Assembly: GCA_041557595.1 (NCBI GenBank)
Contig: JBFFGE010000003.1
Span: 1,656 to 65,655, forward strand
From: Alphaproteobacteria bacterium
GTDB taxonomy: Bacteria > Pseudomonadota > Alphaproteobacteria > UBA8366
Length of the DNA: 64,000 nucleotides
Reading direction: 5' to 3'
Positions 2,557 through 18,388 of the stretch are shown here, one piece after another. Positions within the stretch are counted from its first letter, which is position 1; each line of letters begins with the position of its first letter. Under the pieces are notes generated by a model, which saw nothing but the letters and a program-made list of their open reading frames with translations, was not told the DNA's origin and made no database searches. The translations under genes and the position numbers were made by a program.

Positions 2557-2880
2557 ATGGTCGGACCGAGACGGGTACACGATATGGGGGGCCTCGATGC
2601 GGGGCCGGTGCCGCAGGAAGGGCATCAGCACGAGGCCTGGGAGAAACGCGTCGATGCCATTCGGATGCTGTGCGCGAAGTACGACCTGCTGCGCACCGAC
2701 GAGATGCGCCGCAACATCGAGGACCTCGGTCCCGGGGTGTATGACGAGCTCGGCTATTACGAACGCTGGTGCGCGGCGATCACCAATGTGCTGCTGCAGA
2801 AGAGCGTGATTTCGGTCGACGAGCTGGGCCGCAAGATGAAAGAGGTCGAAGACCGCTGGGAGAAGGCGCGCGCGGAATGA
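2557..2880 (+). CDS. nitrile hydratase family, beta-subunit N-terminal-half protein (split beta)
   Basis: 107 aa with strong AAGGAGG RBS. Shows the beta N-terminal pattern HDMGG...WEKR...D..R..IE.L.P..Y....YYERW. The stop overlaps the next start (ATGA at 2877-2880). Confidence 0.8.
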   Translation: MVGPRRVHDMGGLDAGPVPQEGHQHEAWEKRVDAIRMLCAKYDLLRTDEMRRNIEDLGPGVYDELGYYERWCAAITNVLLQKSVISVDELGRKMKEVEDRWEKARAE

Positions 2881-3176
2881 GCGAGCAATTCACCATCGGA
2901 GACCGGGTGCGGGTGCGCCGCGCCTATCCGCCGGGCCATGTCCGGGCGCCCTACTTCACCCGCGGCAAGACCGGCGTGGTTACGGCGATCGCCGGGCATT
3001 ACCGCAATCCGGAAGATTTGGCCTATGGCCGCTACGACGGCGAAATCCTGCCGCTCTACCGCGTGCGCTTCGAGCAGGCGGATTTGTGGGCGGAGTATCA
3101 AGGCGGTCCGAAGGACAGCACGATTGTCGACGTCTATGAGAATTGGTTGGAACCCGAGAAAGGAGGCGGCCGATGA
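2877..3176 (+). CDS. nitrile hydratase family, beta-subunit C-terminal (SH3-like) half protein (split beta)
   Basis: 99 aa. FTIGDRVRV...PGHVRAPYFTRGKTGVV...YRVRF...LW resembles the C-terminal barrel of NHase beta. ATGA overlaps on both sides (2877-2880 and 3173-3176). Confidence 0.75.
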   Translation: MSEQFTIGDRVRVRRAYPPGHVRAPYFTRGKTGVVTAIAGHYRNPEDLAYGRYDGEILPLYRVRFEQADLWAEYQGGPKDSTIVDVYENWLEPEKGGGR

Positions 3177-3838
3177 GCAGCCCCGACGAACACGTCCATG
3201 AGCATGACCACGACCACGATCATGACCACGACCGGACGTGTCAACCCGATATCGAGGATTCGCCCTATTCGCACTATCAGGTCATGGCGCAGGCGTTGGG
3301 CGAGGTGCTGATCGACAAGGGGATCATCACCGCCGATGAGCTGCGCGAACAGATCGAAGTGCAGGATTCCCGCAGCCCGGCCGAAGGGGCGAAACTGATC
3401 GCCCGCGCCTGGACGGATCCGGAATTCAAGGCGCAGTTCATGGCCGACGTGAATGCCGCCGCCGAATCGATGGGCGTGCCGGCCGGCGACATTCCGATCC
3501 GGGCGGTCGAGAACACGGCCGAGGTGCACAACGTGATCGTCTGCACCTTGTGTTCCTGCTATCCGCGCGGACTGCTCGGCGTGCCGCCGGACTGGTATAA
3601 ATCGCGGGCCTATCGCAGCCGAACCGTTCGCGAACCGCGCGCCATCCTGGCGGAATTCGGCACCGAGTTGCCGGACGATTTCGAAGTCCGGGTGCATGAC
3701 AGCACCGCCGACCTCCGGTACATCGTTCTGCCGATGCGGCCGGACGGGACGGACGGGATGGACGAGGCGTCGCTGGAGGCGCTGGTCAGCCGGGACTGCA
3801 TGATCGGCGTATCTCTGCCGCGTCGCCCGAAGGCGTGA
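3173..3838 (+). CDS. nitrile hydratase alpha-subunit-like / thiocyanate hydrolase gamma-like metal-centre subunit, cobalt-type motif
   Basis: 221 aa. The metal-binding claw VCTLCSCYP is encoded at 3542-3559, followed by PPDWYKSRAYRSRTVREPR. The N-terminus carries EHVHEHDHDHDHDHD. Confidence 0.85.
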   Translation: MSSPDEHVHEHDHDHDHDHDRTCQPDIEDSPYSHYQVMAQALGEVLIDKGIITADELREQIEVQDSRSPAEGAKLIARAWTDPEFKAQFMADVNAAAESMGVPAGDIPIRAVENTAEVHNVIVCTLCSCYPRGLLGVPPDWYKSRAYRSRTVREPRAILAEFGTELPDDFEVRVHDSTADLRYIVLPMRPDGTDGMDEASLEALVSRDCMIGVSLPRRPKA

Positions 3839-3881: not shown

Positions 3882-4496
3882 ATGAAGAAGTCCATGCGAC
3901 TTTTTCGCGCCTTGCTGTGTGTCCTCTTCGCCGCCGCCGTGCTGGGCGGCTGCTACCTGCCGAGCGAATTCAAGGCCGATCTCCGAATCGCGCCGAACGG
4001 CAACTACAATTTCAAATACGAAGGCCTGCTGGTGTATCTGCCGCTGGTGAAGAAGCTGTCGGAGGGCGAGCTCTCGGCGGAAGCGCTGCAAAAAGAAGTG
4101 TCGGTGATCGATCGCGATCTCGGTCGCGATTCCGGATTCAAGGAAATCGCCTATATCGACCGCGGCACCTTTCGCGTGCGCTATGCCCGGGTGGGCAACA
4201 TCGTCCAGGAAAAATCGTTCAATTTCGTGCGCTCGAGCGCGCGGATGCTGTCAATCGAAAGACGCTTGGATGGAACCGTTCACGTGATCGGCGACAAGCC
4301 GAACAAATCGCTCGCCACACAGCTCGCGCGCGGCGGCTTCGTGGTGCGCGGCACGCTGCGCGTCCAGACCGAGGCGCAGGTGGTTCGCCACAACGCCGCG
4401 GAAGTGACGGAGGCCGCCGCGAAGCTCTACATCTGGCGGATCGAGGGCGTCGAGCGAAAATCGCCCCGGCTGGTCTTCAACCTGCAGGGCCGCTGA
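3882..4496 (+). CDS. hypothetical lipoprotein
   Basis: 204-aa ORF. N-terminal signal with lipobox (MKKSMRLFRALLCVLFAAAVLGG-C). No family recognised and no obvious SD. Confidence 0.55.
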   Translation: MKKSMRLFRALLCVLFAAAVLGGCYLPSEFKADLRIAPNGNYNFKYEGLLVYLPLVKKLSEGELSAEALQKEVSVIDRDLGRDSGFKEIAYIDRGTFRVRYARVGNIVQEKSFNFVRSSARMLSIERRLDGTVHVIGDKPNKSLATQLARGGFVVRGTLRVQTEAQVVRHNAAEVTEAAAKLYIWRIEGVERKSPRLVFNLQGR

Positions 4497-7463: not shown

Positions 7464-8128
7464 GATCTCGATTGTAGCGTGCCCGCGGCCGCCATGAGCC
7501 GGCGCATTTGCGCCGCCATTTCCTTGGGATCGGCGCCGCGCCGGAACAACGTCAGATAACGCCCATCCGGGCCCATGAAATAGACGAAGCTACTGTGGTC
7601 CATCAGATAATCGGTCGCATCGCCAGCCGAATCACCGGACCTGGAGCGCGCATAGAAAACCCGGTAGGCCTTGGCGGCCACGGCGATCTCGTCGGCGGTC
7701 CCGCTCAGGCCGACCAGACGCGGATGGAACTGCGCGACGTAGTCCGCGAGGAAGTCCGGCGTGTCGCGCGCCGGATCGATGGTGATGAACACCGGCTGTA
7801 TCGCGTCGGCCTGTCCGGCCAGCGCATCCAGCGCCGACCCCATGGTGGCGAGCTCGGTCGGGCATACATCGGGGCAGTACCCGTATCCGAAATAGATCAG
7901 CATGTAGCGGCCGCGAAAGCTGGCATCGCTGACCCGCCGGCCGCGATGGTCCACGAGGTTGAACGGGCCGCCGATATTCACCGTCGTCGCCGTCGTACCG
8001 GAAACGCGGTTGCCGGATTTGGGGTCGTCGCCGGAAATATTCCGCCAGACGATCCAGGTGGCGATTGCGATCACCACGAGCGCCACCAGCATGGCGCCAA
8101 TGACCGGTAGCGGAGGCTTGGATTTCAT
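7460..8128 (-). CDS. SCO1/SenC family copper chaperone (thioredoxin fold)
   Basis: 222 aa with an N-terminal TM anchor and a CPDVCP motif within FGYGYCPDVCPTEL. Confidence 0.9.
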   Translation of the reverse strand: MKSKPPLPVIGAMLVALVVIAIATWIVWRNISGDDPKSGNRVSGTTATTVNIGGPFNLVDHRGRRVSDASFRGRYMLIYFGYGYCPDVCPTELATMGSALDALAGQADAIQPVFITIDPARDTPDFLADYVAQFHPRLVGLSGTADEIAVAAKAYRVFYARSRSGDSAGDATDYLMDHSSFVYFMGPDGRYLTLFRRGADPKEMAAQMRRLMAAAGTLQSRS

Positions 8129-8368
8129 CGCCCTGTCCGGAGGTTGGGGCCGAGACCCTATGATCCGAGATTTGATTTCAACGCTGCATTAACCAATTTG
8201 ATATACTGTTGTTTCGGTGGGCCGCGATTAGACAAATCGACGCAGCGCGGCCCCTGCGTGAGTGCATCGAAGTCGCAACAAAGCCGTGAACGTGCCAAAA
8301 TGCTGCCATAGACACGGAAGATTGTGGTAGCGCGCCACCAACAGGTACAATTCGGCCAGGAGTTCGTC

Positions 8369-9067
8369 ATGCAGCAGACGATTGCGCTTGTCGATGACGA
8401 CAAGAACATTTTGACGTCCGTGTCGATGGCCCTCGAAGCGGAGGGCTATCACGTGCGGACCTACAACGACGGGGAAGAGGCGCTTCGCGGGCTGTCGCAA
8501 CAGCCTGTCGACCTTGCCATTCTCGACATTAAGATGCCGCGCATGGACGGCATGGAGCTGCTGCAGAAACTGCGCAGCGGCAGCAATTTGCCGGTCATCT
8601 TCCTGACCTCCAAGGACGATGAGGTCGATGAAGTGCTCGGCCTGCGCATGGGTGCGGACGACTATATCAAGAAGCCGTTTTCGCAACGGCTGCTGATCGA
8701 GCGGATCCGCACCTTGCTGCGCCGTTCAGAACTCGGCGACGAAACGCCGGTCAAGAAGGCGGATGCGGTGTTGGTGCGCGGTCCGCTGGTGCTCGACACC
8801 GAACGGCACTCGTGCTCGTGGGAAGGCCTGGATGTCCAGCTTACCGTAACGGAATTCCTGCTTCTCAAGGCGCTGGCGCAACGGCCCGGCCATGTCAAAA
8901 GCCGCGACCAGTTGATGGATGCGGCGTATGGCGAGAGCATCTACGTCGATGACCGCACCATCGACAGTCATATCAAGCGCCTTCGCAAGAAATTCCGTCA
9001 GGTGGACAACAGCTTTTCGCAAATCGAAACCTTGTACGGGGTGGGGTATCGTTACGGCGAGCAGTAA
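8369..9067 (+). CDS. chvI: OmpR-family response regulator ChvI
   Basis: ATG at 8369 follows CCAGGAG. Receiver domain (LVDDD...[14 protein letters not shown]) plus winged-helix domain. Lies next to chvG, hprK and pckA, as in other alphaproteobacteria. Confidence 0.9.
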
Positions 9068-9072
9068 CCGAT

Positions 9073-10806
9073 ATGGAATATGAGGCGGCGCTAAAGGCGA
9101 TTCGAAAAGGCCTGCGCTGGCCGGGCAGTCTGTCTCGCTTGGCCCGGCGTGGCAATCGCGGCCGCCTCGATCCGGCCGGGCGTATCCAGCCCGCGACGCC
9201 GCCGCCGAAAAAGCGGCGCCTGATGTCGCCCCTGACTCGGCGAATCCTGACGGTAAATGTTGTCGCCCTGCTGATCCCGATCGGCGGGCTTCTTTATGTT
9301 GGCCCCTATCGCGATACCTTGATCGACGCGGAGCTCGAATCCCTGCGCAGCCAGGGCGAAATGATCGCCGGCGCGATCGGCGAAAGCGCGATCGAGATCA
9401 CGCCGGCGGGCGGCCAGTTCATCGACCTGGAACCCGCCCGCCATATCGTCCGGCGCCTCAGCGCGGCGTCGCGCGTGCGTTCGCGGCTGTTCCTCAATTC
9501 CGGTGAAATGGTCGCGGACAGCAGCCAGCTGCTGGGTGGCCGCTGGGTCGTGCAGGTCGAGGCGCTGCCGCCGCCCCGCGAATCGAACTGGGCGCTGGAC
9601 TGGCTGATCGACAGCATCGATTTCGCCTTGGGATGGTTGTCCTACGGCGAAAAATTGGAGCCGTATCGCGAACGGGCGGACCAGCGCGCGGATGATTATC
9701 CGGAGGTGCAGCGGGCCTTTTCGGGCGAGATCATCGGCGTGGTCCGGTCCGGCGGCACCAGCGGGTACATGCTCACCGTGTCGATCCCGGTGCAGCGCTA
9801 CCGTCAGGTGATCGGCGTGCTGTTGCTGGCGAATGACGGCATCGAAATCGAGGCGTCGGTGCGCAATATCCGTCTCACTGTGCTCGCGGTGTTTGCCGGC
9901 GCGTTCGTCATCACCATCCTGCTGTCGCTCTACCTGGCGCGGACGATCGCCCAGCCGGTGCTGCGGCTTGCGGTCGCGGCGGAACGCGTGCGCCGCGGCT
10001 ATGGCACCAAGACGGAACGCATTCCCGATTTCACCAACCGGGGCGATGAAATCGGCGAGCTCTCGGGCGCCTTGCGCGAAATGACCGACGCCTTGCAGCA
10101 GCGCATGGATGCTATCGAACGATTCGCCGCCGATGTCAGCCATGAAATCAAGAATCCCCTGACCTCACTGCGCAGCGCGGTCGAAACCGCGGCCCGCGTG
10201 CCCGATACCCAGCAGCAGCGCCGCCTGATGGCGGTCATTCTGGAAGACGTGCAACGGCTCGACCGGCTGATCACCGACATTTCCAACGCGTCGCGGCTGG
10301 ATTCCGAGTTGAGCCGGGCCGAGACCGAACCGGTGGATATCGGTCGCATGCTGCAGGCTTTGGTGGATATGCACGAAACCACGCGCGGCCCGGGCACGCC
10401 CCGCTTGACGGTGCGGGTACGGAACGAGCGCGCCTTGCGGGTTCAAGGGGTCGAGGACCGGCTGGTTCAGGTGATGCGCAACCTGATCGCCAACGCACTG
10501 AGTTTCAGCCCCCCCGACGGCGAAATCGTGCTGACGGCGGCACGCATCAAGAATTATGTCGAGGTGGCCATCGAAGACAGCGGGCCCGGCATACCGGAGG
10601 CCAAGGTCAGCGCTATCTTCGACCGTTTCTATACGGAGCGCCCCAAGGGCGAAAAGTTCGGCAAGCATTCCGGGCTCGGTCTGTCCATTTCGAAACAGAT
10701 CATCGAGGCCCATGGCGGCACCATCACCGCCGAGAACCGCCATGCGGACGGCGATCCGGAGACCGTCGCGGGCGCCCGGTTCGTGGTGCGCCTGCCGGTC
10801 GTTTGA
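9073..10806 (+). CDS. chvG: sensor histidine kinase ChvG (ExoS/BvrS type)
   Basis: 577-aa ORF with two TM segments, HAMP, H-box FAADVSHEIKNPLTSL and N/G boxes. The start is uncertain; a long basic N-terminus is typical of this family. Confidence 0.88.
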   Translation: MEYEAALKAIRKGLRWPGSLSRLARRGNRGRLDPAGRIQPATPPPKKRRLMSPLTRRILTVNVVALLIPIGGLLYVGPYRDTLIDAELESLRSQGEMIAGAIGESAIEITPAGGQFIDLEPARHIVRRLSAASRVRSRLFLNSGEMVADSSQLLGGRWVVQVEALPPPRESNWALDWLIDSIDFALGWLSYGEKLEPYRERADQRADDYPEVQRAFSGEIIGVVRSGGTSGYMLTVSIPVQRYRQVIGVLLLANDGIEIEASVRNIRLTVLAVFAGAFVITILLSLYLARTIAQPVLRLAVAAERVRRGYGTKTERIPDFTNRGDEIGELSGALREMTDALQQRMDAIERFAADVSHEIKNPLTSLRSAVETAARVPDTQQQRRLMAVILEDVQRLDRLITDISNASRLDSELSRAETEPVDIGRMLQALVDMHETTRGPGTPRLTVRVRNERALRVQGVEDRLVQVMRNLIANALSFSPPDGEIVLTAARIKNYVEVAIEDSGPGIPEAKVSAIFDRFYTERPKGEKFGKHSGLGLSISKQIIEAHGGTITAENRHADGDPETVAGARFVVRLPVV

Positions 10807-10913
10807 CGGTGGCGATGGTCACGGCGGCCGGACTTGCGCCAAGGAATTAACGCTTGCATCCCTGCCCTTCCGACGGATTGACTTCATCTTCAGACGGGCT
10901 CAGGCTTTGCGGC

Positions 10914-11342
10914 ATGGAAACTGTCCACGGCACAACCGTTGCAATCGCGGGCGCGGGCGTGTTGCTGCGCGGCCCGTCGGCCAGCGGCAAATCGGATCTC
11001 GCTTTGCGCCTGATCGATGACGGCGCGATGCTTGTTGCGGACGACCGTACGGTGCTGGCGCCGGGTGACGGATCCGTGGTGGCGTCCGCGCCGCCGTCGA
11101 TCGCCGGCCGGATAGAGGTGCGCGGCCTCGGCATTGTGCCGGTCGCGGCGATCGATACGGTGCCGTTGCGGCTGGTGGTGGATTTGATCGAGCCGGAACG
11201 GGCCGAGCGCATGCCGCCGGCGCGCCATGTCGACCTGATGGGGGCGGAGCTTCCGTTGCTGCGCCTCCCCGCGTTTCATGCGTCGACCCCCTCGAAGATC
11301 AGGCTGGCCCTGCGGGTGCCGGCCGGCGAGATCATACGATGA
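10914..11342 (+). CDS. hprK: short alphaproteobacterial HPr kinase/phosphorylase (C-terminal domain only)
   Basis: METVHGT start at 10914 and P-loop GPSASGKS. ATGA overlap with rapZ. Confidence 0.85.
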   Translation: METVHGTTVAIAGAGVLLRGPSASGKSDLALRLIDDGAMLVADDRTVLAPGDGSVVASAPPSIAGRIEVRGLGIVPVAAIDTVPLRLVVDLIEPERAERMPPARHVDLMGAELPLLRLPAFHASTPSKIRLALRVPAGEIIR

Positions 11343-12262
11343 CGTCGACGGACCCGAACGCTCCCAGCGAGAATAGCCTGGTGCTGGTCACCGGCATGTC
11401 GGGCGCCGGGCGAACGACGGCGCTGAAGACCCTGGAAGATCTCGGCTACGAAGCGGTGGATAATTTGCCGCTGTCTCTGTTGGGCGGGCTCGTCCGGTCG
11501 GGTCCGGACATGGGCGGCAAGGGTCCGCGGCGGCCGCTCGCCATCGGCGTGGATATCCGCACCCGCGATTTCGGGGTCGATCCGTTTATCGATGAACTCG
11601 ATCGCTTGATCGGCGCGGCGGGACTCGACGTTCGCACCGTGTTCCTGGATTGCGACGACGACTTCCTGCTGCGCCGCTATGCGGAAACGCGTCGCCGCCA
11701 CCCGCTCGATTCCGATCGCCCGGTTCCCGAAATGATCCAGATCGAGCGGCGCTTGCTGTCGCGGTTGCGCGCCCGCGCGGATGTGGTGATCGACACGACC
11801 GGCATGTCGCCCTGGAATCTGCGGGAACGTTTGCGCGATCAATTCATCGGCGATGGCGGCGTCGGCATGAGCCTGTTCGTGACCTCGTTCGGGTTCCGCT
11901 TCGGTGTGCCGCGCGAGGCGGATTTGGTGTTCGACGTCCGGTTCCTCAACAATCCGCACTACGATCCGGCGTTGCGCGACCTCACGGGCCAAGACCGCGC
12001 GGTCCAGGAAGCGGTCGCGGCCGACCGGGATTTCGAAGGGTATTTCGGTGCGGTAACCGGCCTGCTGAAGATCTCTCTGCCGCGCTATGCGGAGGAAGGC
12101 AAGAGCTACCTGACGATTGCCATCGGGTGCACCGGCGGGCGGCATCGCAGCGTCTTCGTGGCGACGCGCCTTGCGGAATGGCTATCCGCCAACGGCTGGA
12201 GGGTCGGCGTTTCCCATCGCGATATCGACGGCGGCACCGATAGAATTGTGAGCCCGACATGA
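11339..12262 (+). CDS. rapZ: RNase adapter / P-loop ATPase RapZ
   Basis: 307 aa with Walker A VTGMSGAGRTTA and C-terminal CTGGRHRSV motif. Confidence 0.9.
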   Translation: MTSTDPNAPSENSLVLVTGMSGAGRTTALKTLEDLGYEAVDNLPLSLLGGLVRSGPDMGGKGPRRPLAIGVDIRTRDFGVDPFIDELDRLIGAAGLDVRTVFLDCDDDFLLRRYAETRRRHPLDSDRPVPEMIQIERRLLSRLRARADVVIDTTGMSPWNLRERLRDQFIGDGGVGMSLFVTSFGFRFGVPREADLVFDVRFLNNPHYDPALRDLTGQDRAVQEAVAADRDFEGYFGAVTGLLKISLPRYAEEGKSYLTIAIGCTGGRHRSVFVATRLAEWLSANGWRVGVSHRDIDGGTDRIVSPT

Positions 12263-12299
12263 TACAACAGCGGCAAGGTTCTCTCGTGGAGTGCGGGGC

Positions 12300-12731
12300 A
12301 TGATCGGCATCGTTCTCGTGACGCATGGCGACCTGGCGGCGGAATTTCTGTCGGCGCTCGAGCATATCGTCGGCGCGCAGCGCAACGTGATGACCGTGTG
12401 CATCGGCGCCGATGACGATTTGGAGCAGCGCCGGGCGGATATTCTCGACTCGATCACCAGGGCCGATGACGGCGCCGGCGTGGTGCTGCTGACCGATATG
12501 TTCGGCGGCACGCCCTGCAATCTGGCGATTTCGGTGATGGATCAGGCGCAAGTCGAAGTGATTGCGGGGGTAAACCTGCCCATGCTGGTGCGGTTGGCGT
12601 CGATTCGCGACCGGTTGCCGCTGGCCGAGGCGGTCATCAGCGCCCAGGAAGCCGGGCGGAAATACATCAATGTGGCGTCCCGGTTGCTTGCGGAGCAGGC
12701 TGCGCCGGGATCGACGGGGGCAGATGGTTGA
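12300..12731 (+). CDS. PTS EIIA component, mannose family
   Basis: MIGIVLVTHGDLAAEF carries the phosphorylatable His in the VTHG context. Conserved position after hprK/rapZ. Confidence 0.85.
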   Translation: MIGIVLVTHGDLAAEFLSALEHIVGAQRNVMTVCIGADDDLEQRRADILDSITRADDGAGVVLLTDMFGGTPCNLAISVMDQAQVEVIAGVNLPMLVRLASIRDRLPLAEAVISAQEAGRKYINVASRLLAEQAAPGSTGADG

Positions 12732-12990
12732 AGCGACTTTCGAAATTACCAACCGGCGGGGCCTGCACGCGCGGGCAGCGGCGAAATTCGCCCAACTGGC
12801 CGGCATGTTCGACGCCAAGATCACCGTCTCGAAAGATGGAGCCACGGTTTCCGGGGAGTCGATCATGGGCTTGATGATGCTGTCGGCGGCAACCGGAAGC
12901 TCGATCCTGGTGCAGGCGGAGGGGGATGGCGCGCAGGCGGCGCTCGACGCGTTGGAAACACTCGTCGCGGGCGGGTTCGACGAGGACTGA
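12724..12990 (+). CDS. ptsH: HPr-family phosphocarrier protein
   Basis: 88 aa. Active-site GLHARAA (His15 equivalent) and ESIMGLMML (Ser46 equivalent). 8-nt overlap with the EIIA gene. Confidence 0.9.
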   Translation: MVEATFEITNRRGLHARAAAKFAQLAGMFDAKITVSKDGATVSGESIMGLMMLSAATGSSILVQAEGDGAQAALDALETLVAGGFDED

Positions 12991-13117
12991 TCCGATTGGC
13001 TATGGCCCGTTTGCATCCTTGTCGCTAGCGGACGCCGCTGTTATACCCCGCCCTGAGAGCGCCTGAAATTTTGGCTGGCGCAGTACCAGACCCGCTTGAT
13101 CCCCGAGGAAAAGACAT

Positions 13118-14413
13118 ATGACCGCCGCACAAGACTTTAAGGTTGCCGACTCCGATCTGGCCGACTGGGGCCGCAAGGAAATCGCCATCGCCGAGACCGA
13201 GATGCCGGGCCTGATGGCGTTGCGCGAGGAATTCGGCGCCGAACAGCCGCTGAAAGACGCGCGGATCGCCGGCTGTCTGCATATGACGATTCAGACGGCG
13301 GTGCTGATCGAAACCCTGACGGCGCTCGGCGCCGAGGTGCGCTGGTCTTCCTGCAATATTTTCTCGACCCAGGATCAGGCGGCCGCGGCGATCGCGGCGA
13401 CCGGCGTTCCGGTCTTCGCCTGGAAAGGCATGAGCGAAGAGGAATTCTGGTGGGCGATCGATCAGACGATCGAGGGACCGAACGGTTGGCGGCCGAACAT
13501 CTTGCTCGACGACGGCGGCGATCTGACCAAGGTCATGCACGAGAAATTCGCCCCTTTGATGAAGGATGTGGTCGGCCTGTCGGAGGAAACGACGACTGGC
13601 GTCCACCGTCTCTATGAAATGGAGCGGGACGGGTCGCTCGCGGTGCCGGCGATCAACGTCAACGACTCGGTGACCAAATCGAAATTCGACAATTTATATG
13701 GCTGCCGGGAAAGCCTGGTGGACGGGATCAAGCGTGCGACCGACGTCATGATCGCCGGCAAGATCGCCGTGGTGTGCGGCTATGGCGATGTGGGCAAGGG
13801 ATCCGCGGCCTCGCTTCGTGGCCTGGGCGCCCGTGTCCTGATCACCGAGATCGATCCGATTTGCGCGCTGCAGGCGGCCATGGAGGGGTACGAAGTCGTG
13901 ACCATGGAGGACGCCGCGGCGCTCGGCGATATCTTCGTGACGACGACGGGCAATGTGGATGTGATCACCATCGAGCACATGCGGCAAATGAAGGACCGGG
14001 CGATCGTCAGCAATATCGGGCATTTCGATTCCGAGATTCAGATCGAGGCGCTGCGCAATTATCCCTGGCACAACGTCAAGCCGCAGGTCGACGAGATCGA
14101 GTTTCCCGACGGTAAGCGGTTGATCGTCCTGGCCGAGGGACGGTTGGTCAATCTCGGTTGCGCCACCGGCCACCCGAGCTTCGTGATGTCGGCGTCCTTC
14201 ACCAATCAGGTGCTGGCGCAAATCGAATTGTGGCGCAATTCGAAGAATTACGAGAAGAAGGTCTATGTCCTGCCCAAGCATCTCGACGAAAAGGTCGCGG
14301 CGCTGCACCTCGAAAAACTGGGGGTCAAGCTCACCACCCTGACGAAGACCCAGGCCGAGTATCTTGGCATGTCGCCGGCCGGACCCTTCAAGCCGGATTA
14401 CTACCGCTACTGA
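13118..14413 (+). CDS. ahcY: adenosylhomocysteinase
   Basis: 431 aa with NAD-binding loop [11 protein letters not shown] and C-terminal PFKPDYYRY. Confidence 0.97.
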
Positions 14414-14488
14414 CCCAATTCCGGGCGCGCGGAGGTCGCGGTTGCGCTTGTGGGTCAAGGACATGCTGCCTAGACTGCGCCGCGTGAC

Positions 14489-14761
14489 TAGCCCGCACTT
14501 CTCATACTCTGCGCGGTCTGCGTCGCGTCCAGGCGGTTGCTCCGCCAGGAGCGGGCCGAAAAGCGTAGCCCATGCTACGGTTGAGGGCCGCGACGCCGCG
14601 GACGGCCGCCTGGGCGCGACCCTGCGGGCGGCGCCGTCGCGCCCCCCGACAGGATGCGTCAAGCCGCTTGCCCGATGCCCCGCATCGCGCTGCACGGCTT
14701 TCCTGCCCTGTCGGGGCGACGGCGCCGCGCAGGCCACGGAGAGTAGGAGAAGTGCGGGCTA
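14489..14761. mobile_element. MITE-like non-coding element: 269-bp body with about 32-bp imperfect terminal inverted repeats, flanked by TA on both sides
   Basis: Left arm 14491-14522 (GCCCGCACTTCTCATACTCTGCGCGGTCTGCG) matches the reverse complement of 14728-14759 at 28 of 32 positions by hand alignment. TA is present at 14489-14490 and 14760-14761. Nested internal inverted repeats lie at 14631-14653/14707-14725, 14673-14687 and 14564-14579. Confidence 0.45.
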
Positions 14762-16827
14762 GAGCGCCAATCGCACTCATGGCCATCTGTCTTTGGATGG
14801 GCCCCATCGCGATCCGTCCCGGCCTTGCGGCGGATGCCGGCATGGCTGCCCCGCTCGGCGCGCTGGGGTTCATCGTCGCGGGGCTGCTGCTGGCGGTCTA
14901 CCTGTTGTGGCGCCGCCTCCAGGCCGCCAAGGCGCGGCTCGAGGGAATGGAGCGGCGCACTGTCAAGCTCAACGACGACCTCGAGCGGCAATGGGCCGCC
15001 ACCGCGCATCTCCAATCCGTGCTCGACGCGCTCCCGTTTCCGGTCTGGTGGCGCGGGCCGGACCTGTCGATCGACGGGCGGAACAGCGCCGCCGCGGCGC
15101 TCATCGATCCGCCGCCCCTGATCGAGCCGCGGATAGCGGCGCGGGCGCTCAAGGCCGGTGCGGCGCAATCGGAAAGCCGGCACTTCATCATGGACGGCGA
15201 ACGGCGGCTCCTGGAATTGACCGAGTCGATTATTGGGCCGGACACCGGGCCGGGCGCCGCCGGGACGGTCGGTCATGCCGCCGATGTGACGACGCTGGAG
15301 CGGGTGCAGACCGATCTCGCCGAACATGTCGCGGCGCATGACGAGGTTCTGGAGCGGCTGGCTGCCGCGATCGCGGTGTTCGGTCCCGACCGCCGGCTCA
15401 AGTTTTTCAACACCGCGTTTACCCGGCTCTGGCGCATCGATGCGTCGCATATCCACGACGAGCCGACCTATAGCGAGCTGCTGGATATCCTGCGCGATTT
15501 GCGCCGGCTGCCGGAGATCGTCGATTTTCCGATGTACAAGCAAGAACAGGATTTGCTTTTCACATCGCTGATCGACCCGACCGAATCCATGTTGCACTTG
15601 CCGGACAATCGGACGCTTCGGCTGGTCACCGCGCCGCATCCCTTCGGCGGCTTGCTGTTCGTGTATGAGGACGTCACCGACCGCTTGGCGCTCGAGCGGT
15701 CGTACAACACCCTGATCGCGGTGCAGCGGGAAACGCTGAACAATTTCCACGAGGCCGTGGCGGTCTACGGCGCGGACGGCCGGCTGCGGCTTTGGAACCC
15801 CGCTCTGGTCCGGCATTGGCGTTTCAATGAATTCGATCTGCAGGGCGAACCCAGAATCGGCGAATTGCTCGACAAGGTGCGGCATTATTTCAAGCCCGGC
15901 ACGGATTGGGCATGGCTGCGGGAAAAACTGGTTCTCCAGGTGACCGAACCGAAGCCGCTGAGCGGCCGCCTGGAGCGCACCAACGGCACGACGCTGCAAT
16001 ACACCATAGTGCCCTTGCCGGATGGCGGCTGTCTGGTGACCTATCTCGATGTCACCGATAGCATCCGCGTCCAGCGCGTGCTCGAGGACCGCTATGCCGC
16101 CCTCGAGCAGGCGGATAAATTGAAGACCGAGTTTATCGCGCGCATGAGTTACGAATTGCGGACGCCGCTCAACTCGATCCAGGGCTTTACCGAGTTGCTG
16201 TTACGCGACGAGGCGGTCGACGGCCTTTCCAGTCGGCAGCAGGAATATCTCGACGATATCGGCACCGCGGCCGGCCAGCTTCTGGCCATGATCAACAACG
16301 TGCTCGACTATGCGGCAATCGAAGCGGGGTATTTGGAAATCAAACGCCAGCCGACCGATCTGGAACCGTTGCTGCAGGATGAGGTAAAGCGCGCGCTGCC
16401 GGCGGCGGATGCGCGCGGACTGACCTTGACCCTGGAATGCGCGGCCGAGATCGGTTCCGTTATGCTCGACCCAAGCCGCTTTCGCCAGGTCGTCCGCAAT
16501 TTGTTGTCGAACGCCATGAAATTCACCCCGGCCGGGGGTGCGGTCGCGATCTCTGCGCTGCGCGACGACGGCGACATGGTGCTTTCCATTTCCGACACGG
16601 GGATCGGTTTCGACGACAGCAGCGGCGACCGCCTGTTGAAGCGTTTCGAGGTCGGCGAGGGGCCGGTGCGCGGCGCCGGCGTCGGTCTCGGTCTGGCGCT
16701 GGTCCGCAGCCTGGTCGAGCTGCACGGGGGCACGACCAGCTTGTCGTCGAAGGCCGGCGACGGGACCGTCGCAACATGCCGCATCCCGATCGGCCGGCCG
16801 GACCGGCAACTCGCGACGACGCGTTAG
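14752..16827 (+). CDS. divL: DivL-type PAS sensor kinase homologue (phospho-acceptor His replaced by Tyr)
   Basis: The ORF is open from 14572, but its first roughly 60 codons lie inside the repeat element. GTG 14752 or ATG 14779 precede the TM segment. Multiple PAS-like repeats are present. The DHp box reads MSYELRTPLN, with TAC at 16150-16152. N, G1 and G2 boxes are present. Confidence 0.75.
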   Translation: MRARAPIALMAICLWMGPIAIRPGLAADAGMAAPLGALGFIVAGLLLAVYLLWRRLQAAKARLEGMERRTVKLNDDLERQWAATAHLQSVLDALPFPVWWRGPDLSIDGRNSAAAALIDPPPLIEPRIAARALKAGAAQSESRHFIMDGERRLLELTESIIGPDTGPGAAGTVGHAADVTTLERVQTDLAEHVAAHDEVLERLAAAIAVFGPDRRLKFFNTAFTRLWRIDASHIHDEPTYSELLDILRDLRRLPEIVDFPMYKQEQDLLFTSLIDPTESMLHLPDNRTLRLVTAPHPFGGLLFVYEDVTDRLALERSYNTLIAVQRETLNNFHEAVAVYGADGRLRLWNPALVRHWRFNEFDLQGEPRIGELLDKVRHYFKPGTDWAWLREKLVLQVTEPKPLSGRLERTNGTTLQYTIVPLPDGGCLVTYLDVTDSIRVQRVLEDRYAALEQADKLKTEFIARMSYELRTPLNSIQGFTELLLRDEAVDGLSSRQQEYLDDIGTAAGQLLAMINNVLDYAAIEAGYLEIKRQPTDLEPLLQDEVKRALPAADARGLTLTLECAAEIGSVMLDPSRFRQVVRNLLSNAMKFTPAGGAVAISALRDDGDMVLSISDTGIGFDDSSGDRLLKRFEVGEGPVRGAGVGLGLALVRSLVELHGGTTSLSSKAGDGTVATCRIPIGRPDRQLATTR

Positions 16828-17385
16828 ATGCTTTCATCCGCACGGGCCCGGATGATAAAATCATCCTCCATGAATACGCCAGCGCAGGGCCGACCTTGCG
16901 TGTCGCTCCGTGTCGCTTCGGAGGCGGACACCGTACAGATTGCCGAATCCGTGGCGTCGATTGCCCGGCGCGGCGACATTATCGCCCTGTCGGGCGGGCT
17001 CGGGTCGGGCAAGACCGCTTTCGCCCGCGGATTCATCCGGGCGCTCGCCGGCCGCGAAGAGGAGGTGCCGAGCCCGACATTCACGCTGCTGCAAATCTAT
17101 GATGCGGCGCCGACGCCGATCTACCATTTCGATCTGTACCGTATCGAGGCGCCGTCGGAAGTCTGGGAGCTGGGCTTCGACGAAGCGCCGTCGGACGGTA
17201 TCGTCCTGATCGAATGGCCGGAACGGCTCGGCGCGCTTATGCACGCCGACCGTCTCGAGATTACGATCTCGATACCGGCGGGCGCCGGAGAGACGGAGCG
17301 CTGCATCGCTATCGCCGCGGGCGCGTCGTGGGTCGATCGCCTCGGCATCGTGGAGGCCGCGATGCGGTGCGGTCGCGATGACTGA
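16828..17385 (+). CDS. tsaE: tRNA t6A37 biosynthesis ATPase TsaE
   Basis: P-loop LSGGLGSGKTAFARG and the HFDLYR motif. The start is uncertain (ATG 16828, 16852 or 16870). ATG 16828 directly abuts the divL stop. Confidence 0.85.
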   Translation: MLSSARARMIKSSSMNTPAQGRPCVSLRVASEADTVQIAESVASIARRGDIIALSGGLGSGKTAFARGFIRALAGREEEVPSPTFTLLQIYDAAPTPIYHFDLYRIEAPSEVWELGFDEAPSDGIVLIEWPERLGALMHADRLEITISIPAGAGETERCIAIAAGASWVDRLGIVEAAMRCGRDD

Positions 17386-18388
17386 CCGCAATCAGGCAAT
17401 CGCCGACTTCCTGGCGGCGCAGGGTTGGGGCGACGCGCGGCGCGATCCGTTGGCCGCCGATGCGTCGTTCCGGCGATACGAGCGATTGTGGCGCGGCGCC
17501 GACCGCATGCTGCTGATGGATGCGCCGCCGCCGCAGGAAGATGTCCGCCCCTTCGTCGCCATTGCGGACCACCTCCACCGCCTCGGCCTGAGCGCGCCCC
17601 GCATCCGGGCTGCGGACACGCGCGCCGGGTTGTTGCTGCTGGAGGATCTGGGGGACGATACCTATACGCGGCTGATCGCGGCGGGGCGCGAGGAGGCGCC
17701 GCTCTACGAACTGGCGATCGACGTGTTGGCGGAATTGCACCGGCGGTTCGATCCGGACGCGGCGCAGGACGTGCCGCCCTATGACGACGCCCGGCTGCTG
17801 GACGAAGCCGCTTTGCTGGTCGATTGGTATCTGCCGGCGATCCGGAACGCGCCGACCGCAGACGCATTGCGCGACGAATATCTGGCGCTCTGGCGCGAAG
17901 CCCTGTCCTCCGCGCGCGCCGTGCCGGCGACGCTGGTGTTGCGGGACTACCATGTGGACAACCTCATGCTGCTGGACGGCCGATCCGGCATCGCGGCCTG
18001 CGGGCTACTCGACTTCCAGGATGCGGTGATCGGCCCGGTCAGCTATGACGTGGTGTCGTTGTGCGAAGATGCCCGGCGCGATGTGCCGCCCGCCCTGACC
18101 CGGCGCCTGCTCGACCGGTATTTCGACGCGATGCCGGATCTCGACCGGGATGCCTTCCGGGCGTCTTATGCGGTGATGGGGGCGCAGCGCAGCGCCAAGA
18201 TCCTGGGTATCTTCACCCGCCTCGACCGGCGCGACGGCAAGCCGGTGTACCTGAAGCACATCGGGCGCGTGTGGCGATGGCTGGCGGGCAATTTGGCGCA
18301 TCCGGCCCTGTCCGGCGTGCGGGCATGGTTCGACCGTGAAATACCAATCGGCGATCGCGTCGCGCCGCTGCCGGGAGGATCCGAATGA
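17378..18388 (+). CDS. amgK: aminoglycoside-phosphotransferase-fold kinase, AmgK-like (anomeric MurNAc/GlcNAc kinase)
   Basis: 336 aa with catalytic loop LRDYHVDNLMLL. Conserved pairing with the downstream MurU-like gene. Confidence 0.75.
   Translation: MTDRNQAIADFLAAQGWGDARRDPLAADASFRRYERLWRGADRMLLMDAPPPQEDVRPFVAIADHLHRLGLSAPRIRAADTRAGLLLLEDLGDDTYTRLIAAGREEAPLYELAIDVLAELHRRFDPDAAQDVPPYDDARLLDEAALLVDWYLPAIRNAPTADALRDEYLALWREALSSARAVPATLVLRDYHVDNLMLLDGRSGIAACGLLDFQDAVIGPVSYDVVSLCEDARRDVPPALTRRLLDRYFDAMPDLDRDAFRASYAVMGAQRSAKILGIFTRLDRRDGKPVYLKHIGRVWRWLAGNLAHPALSGVRAWFDREIPIGDRVAPLPGGSE

Follow-up and report, generated by a model that had tools for sequence, protein, structure and literature searches.

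The DNA analysed here, a stretch of 64,000 nt from an alphaproteobacterium (assembly GCA_041557595.1, contig JBFFGE010000003.1; hereafter the window), carries a 269-nt element between ahcY and the cell-cycle gene divL, which encodes a DivL-type kinase. We regard this element as a mobile miniature inverted-repeat transposable element (MITE) that inserted at a TA dinucleotide, with a probability of roughly 0.8. The element is present as an insertion relative to related loci, and copies with the same ends were found elsewhere. It represents an undescribed MITE family in uncultured alphaproteobacteria; the kind of element is itself known, and current understanding is not overturned. A first-pass annotation made from the sequence had read the region as a MITE of the IS630/Tc1-mariner type, which is supported by the terminal inverted repeats, the TA duplication, the preference for CTAG, the empty sites in relatives and the copies elsewhere. 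The parts of the element, none of which is assigned to a strand, are the following:

14491-14759: MITE body, 269 nt, non-coding, bounded by terminal inverted repeats, with TA on each side.
14489-14490: left TA of the duplicated target, read from the sequence; the window exceeds the empty sites by 271 nt, which is 269 + 2.
14760-14761: right TA of the duplicated target; together with G 14762 it forms the TAG that closes the frame opened at GTG 14484 (open reading frame 14364-14762).
14491-14527: left terminal inverted repeat (GCCCGCACTTCTCATACTCT...), pair I1 of the repeat search; the same terminus occurs in 14 other copies.
14723-14759: right terminal inverted repeat, containing GGAG (14738-14741), AGGAG (14745-14749) and an in-frame GTG (14752-14754).
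14522-14620: hairpin A, from inverted repeat I4 and the minimum-energy fold; its helices 3-5 show compensatory changes.
14628-14728: hairpin B, from inverted repeats I3 and I17; its helices 7-10 show compensatory changes, and it is missing in the short copies L019 and L039.

Rereading the sequence confirmed that 28 of the 32 nt at 14491-14522 agree with the reverse complement of 14728-14759, as first reported, with the terminal 13 nt (GCCCGCACTTCTC) identical in both arms. A repeat search extended the arms to 14488-14527 and 14723-14762 (40 nt, 85% complementarity), and CTAG is found at both junctions (14488-14491 and 14759-14762). The flanking TA dinucleotides and two small hairpins were located where the first-pass annotation had placed them; the latter form the apexes of hairpin A (CGTAGC-CCAT-GCTACG, 14564-14579) and of hairpin B (CGATGC-CCC-GCATCG, 14673-14687). 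The nested inverted repeats it had described were likewise found, as 14628-14643/14713-14728 and 14644-14653/14707-14716, within hairpin B. It had also seen no credible coding capacity. One reading frame is in fact open across the whole element, but the copies differ from one another by indels and paired compensatory changes, and the translation has only four matches in a protein database of 5.8 billion clusters, all of them ends of genes that read into other copies. The element, small as it is (copies measure 74-292 nt), contains no transposase gene, and no second copy was found within the 64-kb window. No relevant Rfam family was detected, either in the whole window at the gathering threshold or in 14300-14950 at E values up to 10. 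Since a scan of 14300-14900 revealed neither a sigma-70 consensus promoter nor an intrinsic terminator, we claim no outward promoter or terminator role for the element.

For the comparison with element-free sites, six related loci from five sources were used. DivL identities to the window, lengths of the ahcY-divL spacer and state of the site are:

Window: spacer of 365 nt, element present.
L003: DivL 88% identical, spacer of 94 nt, element absent.
L004 and L005: DivL 87% identical, spacer of 94 nt, element absent.
L007: DivL 68% identical, spacer longer with a different upstream part, element absent.
L061, L062 and L063: DivL 51% identical, spacers of 147-160 nt, element absent.

The close relatives have the same ahcY-divL-tsaE order as the window and no element; the distant relatives L061-L063 have kept the gene order as well and show no trace of it. 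In the alignment the element appears as one clean gap, the relatives reading ...GCCGCGTGAC-TC-GAGCGCCAATCGCACTCATGG (AC in L003) and the window ...GCCGCGTGAC-TA-[269 nt]-TA-GAGCGCCAATCGCACTCATGG. The junctions, GTGAC-TA-[269 nt]-TA-GAGCGCC in the window against GTGAC-TC/AC-GAGCG in the relatives, are exact against the empty sites, and the net gain of 271 nt equals the element plus one extra TA. An insertion in the lineage of the window is the parsimonious history of the locus. The search for empty sites had been proposed by the first-pass annotation, which had kept a large structured leader RNA as its alternative; because the element is absent from the same spacer in the related loci, a conserved leader is ruled out and that alternative was rejected. 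A separate observation concerns methylation motifs: the empty sites of L004 (about 3641-3645), L005 (same sequence) and L007 (about 453-457) hold GANTC (GACTC or GAATC), the CcrM motif, directly after a conserved GTG, and the window has no GANTC at the corresponding place or inside the element.

Related copies with the same repeats and TA flanks were found at unrelated loci, as the first-pass annotation had suggested looking for. There are 15 copies at 15 sites in all, two of them on one contig; the 14 further copies fall into four subfamilies and short forms, and the terminus GCCCGCAYTTCTCA is common to all. An exact scan of species-representative genomes with the repeat gave six hits, of which only one was real, an 81-nt element with TA flanks in a metagenome-assembled genome of the Acetobacteraceae (L011). 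A scan of the same kind over metagenome contigs yielded 47 loci; nine proved real after BLAST and inspection, and about 38 were chance matches. The metagenome copies comprise L019 (164 nt) and L039 (177 nt), which are 98% (over 147 nt) and 95% identical, respectively, to the left repeat plus hairpin A of the window, lack hairpin B and differ from each other in their deletion endpoints; L048 and L030, truncated at the ends of their contigs and 79-80% identical to the window; L058, L051 and L031, about 66-70% identical and in the opposite orientation; and L050, a 74-nt form. Searching the protein database with the six-frame translation of the element led to four genes whose called ends read into copies, and the contigs of these genes supplied five full-length copies (L065a, L065b, L066, L067 and L068), which are 78-79% identical to the window and 88-97% to each other. 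Full-length copies measure 265-292 nt.

The two L065 copies (2743-3008 and 4001-4265) are inverted, 96.6% identical and 1 kb apart, and bracket a cation-efflux gene (PF01545/PF16916). Since both lie on one contig, some genomes at least hold several copies. The layout is reminiscent of a composite transposon, and the called gene enters both copies. Neighbouring genes differ from locus to locus (CDP-alcohol phosphatidyltransferase, Fic, cupin, cation efflux, GPP34, CoA-transferase); the copies at other loci mostly lie at the 3' ends of genes, and five gene calls run into a copy. Several matches were discarded: L014, L027 and L029 are AT-rich metagenome sequence and not copies, L016, L023 and similar loci represent one unrelated sequence, and L032 has no long open reading frame inside the repeat. 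In the metagenome contigs L037, L038 and L052, three direct, repeat-like matches to the terminus of the element recur (for example L037 471-490, 1020-1039 and 1161-1180) and lack TA flanks; they are probably unrelated. BLAST against plasmids, with the whole element and with the left repeat, gave chance GC-rich matches only, and the scan of viral contigs a single chance match. A full-text literature search for the repeat string retrieved unrelated primer sequences only, and described repeat families gave no match to the element.

The whole region folds as a Y-shaped hairpin that is far more stable than expected by chance. For 14485-14765 the plus strand as RNA reaches -205 kcal/mol compared with -140.5 ± 5.8 kcal/mol for shuffled sequences (z -11.1; none of 200 shuffles was as good), the minus strand as RNA -193 kcal/mol (z -9.4) and the plus strand as DNA -118 kcal/mol (z -10.7). 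Covariation was assessed by mapping the minimum-energy structure of the window onto an alignment of 12 copies (A4). The share of paired cells is 93.9%, and compensatory changes occur in 44 of 107 pairs, while controls in which the partners were slid by 1-3 columns gave 34-42% paired cells and 6-10 compensatory pairs; none of 500 shuffles reached either the observed paired share or the number of compensatory pairs. An earlier alignment of seven copies gave the same picture. In all copies of A4 that cover it, the apex region of hairpin A (14557-14585, CGAAAAGCGTA.C....TACGGT.GAG) is invariant, and the stems around it change by compensatory substitution. The folding and covariation analysis proposed in the first-pass annotation thus revealed a stable, covarying fold, and it revealed no strand bias: A-C mismatches are as frequent as G-U mismatches in the independent subfamilies, and neither strand folds better than the other. 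Nothing here hints at an RNA made from a single strand, and the constraint on the fold looks to be at the DNA level or strand-neutral.

The flanks of the copies define the target site. TA flanks the left end of 13 of 15 copies and the right end of seven of ten; the base before the left TA is C in nine of 13, and the base after the right TA is G in all seven. The outer base before TA is G in L050 and A in L030, with the inner G unchanged in both, which indicates a duplication of 2 nt (TA) rather than of 4 nt; a 4-nt duplication of CTAG, as in IS5-like elements, is disfavoured by these flanks. At several loci the duplicated TA and the G or C at the tip of the element together make up the TAG stop codon of a flanking open reading frame (L019 5030-5032, L039 13428-13430 and 13606-13608, L058 1703-1705, L050 227-229). 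The insertions in L019, L039 (on both sides), L058 and L050 thus hit the CTAG bearing the stop codon of a gene and left the stop intact. This may be explained by the stop codon that CTAG contains on both strands, which probably makes it depleted in genes and commoner at gene ends.

Elements of the IS630 family and of Tc1/mariner use TA as their target, which is duplicated on insertion (PMC2170065); IS630 prefers TA within CTAG according to Tenzen and Ohtsubo (1991), as cited in PMC2170065. The mobilising enzyme is thus probably, on the evidence of ends and target, an IS630-family transposase. Such an enzyme, made elsewhere, would bind the conserved termini of about 20 nt (GCCCGCAYTTCTCA...), excise the element and paste it into a TA, preferably within CTAG, duplicating the TA as IS630/Tc1-mariner elements do.

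At the locus in the window the insertion has consequences for the start of divL. The features concerned, all on the plus strand, are:

14448-14476: promoter-like motif of divL, with TTGTGG (14448-14453), a 17-nt spacer and TAGACT (14471-14476).
14484-14486: conserved GTG, probable ancestral start of divL, now separated from the body of the gene; the protein of L007 (68%) is called from it, and in L003, L004, L061 and L062 it is in frame.
14779-16827: divL-type kinase gene; database call P0001, 682 aa, 100% identical, start ATG 14779; Pfam PAS_7, HisKA and HATPase_c.

The pattern TTGnnn-N17-TA[G/A]A[C/A]T with a GTG 6-7 nt further on occurs in five of seven ahcY-divL spacers (window 14448-14486, L003, L004, L061 and L062), and the frequency of shuffled spacers with TTGnnn-N17-TAnAnT-N6-7-GTG was 0.0004. 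L007 has only the TAGACT-N7-GTG part, and 14471-14487 is invariant in all close relatives. The GTG is in frame with the called ATG, with no stop in between, 8 codons upstream of it in L003 and L004 and 33 codons upstream in L061 and L062. The L007 protein P0004, called from the conserved GTG, begins MNRGGTVILAALTWAGP, and the position corresponding to ATG 14779 is CTG there. ATG 14463, which falls within the spacer of the promoter-like motif and is not in frame in L007, was rejected as a start. The ancestral start of divL was therefore probably GTG 14484, which coincides with the predicted transcription start or lies only a few bases from it. These data suggest that the start codon of divL in this clade is a GTG that coincides with or adjoins the transcription start, possibly on a leaderless mRNA, and that several database calls of divL start too late; a literature search for leaderless divL transcripts returned nothing. 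The first-pass annotation had placed the element between ahcY and divL. This needs correction, as the element lies downstream of the conserved promoter-like motif and of the probable ancestral start.

As reconstructed, the element probably interrupts codon 3 of divL. The sequence before insertion would have been GTG ACT AGA GCG, compared with GTG ACT CGA GCG in the relatives; a synonymous Arg change from CGA to AGA would probably have created CTAG at codons 2-3 in the lineage of the window, and the element would then have inserted there, about 5 nt past the predicted transcription start. The promoter-like motif and the ancestral GTG would now lie 271 nt upstream of the rest of the gene, and the divL transcript should bear the whole 270-nt Y-shaped hairpin at its 5' end. 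From GTG 14484 the frame of the window runs through the whole element to TAG 14760-14762 in the right-hand CTAG, 92 codons in all; the old frame ends there because the gain of 271 nt shifts it. With the ancestral start upstream of the insertion, DivL thus needs a replacement start.

Two candidates for this start were considered. ATG 14779, the choice of the gene callers, follows the base of the terminal stem at a distance of 17 nt and lacks a Shine-Dalgarno sequence. GTG 14752 lies in the right repeat, with GGAG (14738-14741) 10 nt and AGGAG (14745-14749) 2 nt upstream, and opens the frame GTG CGG GCT AGA GCG CCA ATC GCA CTC ATG. A start there would give MRARAPIALMAI (MRARAPIAL...) compared with the ancestral MTRAPIALMAI, that is, a near-native N-terminus. 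The first-pass annotation had proposed that the right repeat supplies the divL start. AGGAG and the in-frame GTG are present, a replacement start is needed and the reading is plausible, but the database call starts at ATG 14779. GTG 14752, which it had called the first plausible start, is not the first in the frame, as ATG 14572 is also in frame further upstream; AGGAG is only 2 nt from the GTG. In the full-length transcript the terminal stem would lock in GTG 14752 unless the helix melts. Ribosomes translating the 92-codon upstream frame could melt it, since they would terminate 8 nt downstream of GTG 14752. We consider it doubtful that the repeat-borne GTG is the working start of divL. Equally tentative is a wider proposal in which divL would have been rescued by the outward-facing ribosome-binding site of the repeat and its in-frame GTG, perhaps exposed only while the 92 codons are translated. 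The element would then act as a translational control module. In a broader sense, the conserved Y-shaped core with its invariant apex could serve the whole family as a functional module, for instance a second protein-binding site or a small RNA, and not be mere filler.

Several observations weigh against a MITE moved by an IS630-type enzyme and against the history proposed for divL. The source genome lies outside the collections searched, and the count of 15 copies says nothing about the copy number there. TA is missing on one or both sides in L048 and in the more diverged L066, L067 and L068. The empty sites of the relatives read TC or AC rather than TA, so that the TA target is reconstructed and not observed. 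A transposase gene next to a matching terminus was found neither in the window nor by exact-pattern scans, which are insensitive, of species-representative genomes, metagenomes and viral contigs, nor by BLAST against plasmids; for this reason the assignment to IS630 draws on the structure of the ends and the target site only. A cut-and-paste transposase needs only the termini, and the conserved internal hairpins with their invariant apex are therefore unexplained by this mechanism. Finally, a strict sigma-70 consensus scan does not call the promoter-like motif of divL, and its promoter role is consequently deduced from conservation.

Some of these points would fit a MITE derived from, and moved by, a transposase outside the IS630 family, be it an IS5-family enzyme (with CTAG or TNA as target) or one recognising the conserved internal hairpin. 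The ends read CTAG, a target of IS5-type elements as well, the searches retrieved no cognate transposase, and the conservation of the internal fold and of the apex of hairpin A exceeds what a DDE enzyme that binds the terminal repeats would need. However, the outer base is G or A in L050 and L030 while the inner G is kept, and under a 4-nt model the ends of L050 would be GTAG and CTAG, whereas a 2-nt duplication of TA is exact. The net gain of 271 = 269 + 2 is compatible with both lengths and does not discriminate. We judge a transposase of another family unlikely. Spread by a single-strand hairpin mechanism (REP/RAYT or IS200/IS605), with the TA flanks incidental, would account for nested hairpins kept by compensatory changes without strand bias and for the invariant apex sequence. 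Such a mechanism is very improbable given the long terminal inverted repeats and the clean 2-nt direct repeat at most copies, the length of 265-292 nt rather than 20-40 nt, the absence of clustered arrays and the lack of a Y1 or HUH transposase gene nearby in any locus listing.

The other two explanations deny mobility. A conserved leader RNA or riboswitch of divL that is structured and vertically inherited, or a structure at the 3' end of ahcY, would agree with the very stable, covarying fold, and in this genome the divL mRNA should indeed carry the element at its 5' end. None of the six related loci has the element in the spacer, though; it occurs at unrelated loci, mostly at gene 3' ends, and matches no Rfam family. 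Moreover, G-U mismatches are as frequent as A-C mismatches, and neither strand folds better than the other. There is hardly any room left for such an RNA. Even more remote is an assembly artefact, a palindromic chimera or misjoin. In its favour, the contigs of two further assemblies of this organism break off at the element or close to it (L001 at 14458, L002 at 14661). The right half is identical in the independent assembly L002, the element sequence is not copied from its own flanks, homologous copies are found in many unrelated metagenome assemblies, and the junctions are exact against the empty sites.

The two breaks are at the edges of contigs: the contig of GCA_041571955.1 (L001) ends at window position 14458, 30 nt before the element, and a Logan contig from SRR25158307 (L002) starts at 14661, inside hairpin B. 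Both fit hard-to-assemble repeated or palindromic sequence, or a mixed population. The upstream neighbour of the element in the window is:

13118-14413, plus strand: ahcY, S-adenosylhomocysteine hydrolase (Pfam AdoHcyase 3e-136, AdoHcyase_NAD 2e-82); upstream neighbour in all relatives.

No S-adenosylhomocysteine riboswitch was detected upstream of ahcY at the Rfam gathering threshold. In the H-box of the kinase (ARMSYELRTPL) Tyr replaces the phospho-acceptor His, and the same Tyr is present in P0002-P0004; this replacement is the hallmark of DivL, which is essential in Caulobacter. Downstream of divL lies tsaE. Across the relatives the order of genes at about 7800-17400 of the window is kept, with a chvI/chvG-like two-component system, hprK, rapZ, EIIA(Man), HPr, ahcY, divL and tsaE.

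The evidence for mobility is of the textbook type, with empty and filled sites, TA duplication and CTAG preference. Covariation-kept internal hairpins without strand bias and an invariant apex go beyond what cut-and-paste transposition needs. Repeats of this kind break assemblies and mislead gene callers. The locus itself is a natural experiment, in which a very stable 270-nt hairpin has come to lie between the promoter or native start and the body of divL, and it may reveal how a gene regains a start after a transposon has struck it. If the repeat-borne start were true, the element would now be a translational control module for divL.

Among known repeat systems, REP/BIME sequences moved by RAYT are 20-40 nt long, have a conserved GTAG/CTAC head, often form arrays and make no duplication, whereas the element has 269 nt, is single in the window and shows long terminal inverted repeats and a TA duplication; it was not assigned to them. 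RIME and BIME are mosaics of short palindromes and are not known to duplicate their target. Membership among conserved cis-regulatory leader RNAs was rejected too, as the element is not at the same position in related genomes and matches no Rfam family. ERIC/IRU, RPE, RIME and CIR resemble it in being small, imperfectly palindromic and intergenic with stable predicted stem-loops, some of them with TA termini (PMC2229807), but show no sequence similarity to it, and there is no Rfam match. In its behaviour the element is like the TA-duplicating MITEs of bacteria, namely RUP (linked to IS630-Spn1), Correia/NEMIS and ERIC (PMC2229807), though its full-length copies are larger. CIR of Caulobacter and Brucella has GANTC sites and no terminal repeats (PMC2229807); the element, in contrast, has clear terminal repeats and no GANTC, and was excluded from this family.

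The Stowaway MITEs of plants share the TA duplication, termini related to Tc1/mariner and a strong tendency towards foldback into one long hairpin (PMC5172404; general knowledge), but are eukaryotic, unrelated in sequence and prefer genic AT-rich sites as opposed to CTAG at bacterial gene ends. RUP of Streptococcus pneumoniae and other IS630-derived MITEs are, like the element, non-coding, bounded by terminal inverted repeats, inserted at a duplicated TA and present in many copies, and an IS630-family transposase acting in trans presumably mobilises them (PMC2229807, PMC2170065). RUP differs in being 107 bp long and AT-rich, with termini that match IS630-Spn1, whereas the element is 265-292 bp long and GC-rich, has two covariation-kept hairpins and a clear CTAG preference, shows no sequence similarity to RUP and has no partner found. 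The Correia/NEMIS repeats of Neisseria come from another host clade, show no sequence similarity, measure 107-155 bp and contain an IHF site in the long form; RNase III processing and promoter activity have been demonstrated for Correia. Correia/NEMIS repeats have a TA duplication, terminal repeats of 24-26 bp, size variants that differ by an internal block and no identified transposase, and their transcripts are predicted to form long hairpins that affect adjacent genes (PMC2229807). The element resembles them in its TA duplication, its long terminal repeats, its size variants by internal block and the hairpins that its predicted transcripts would form.

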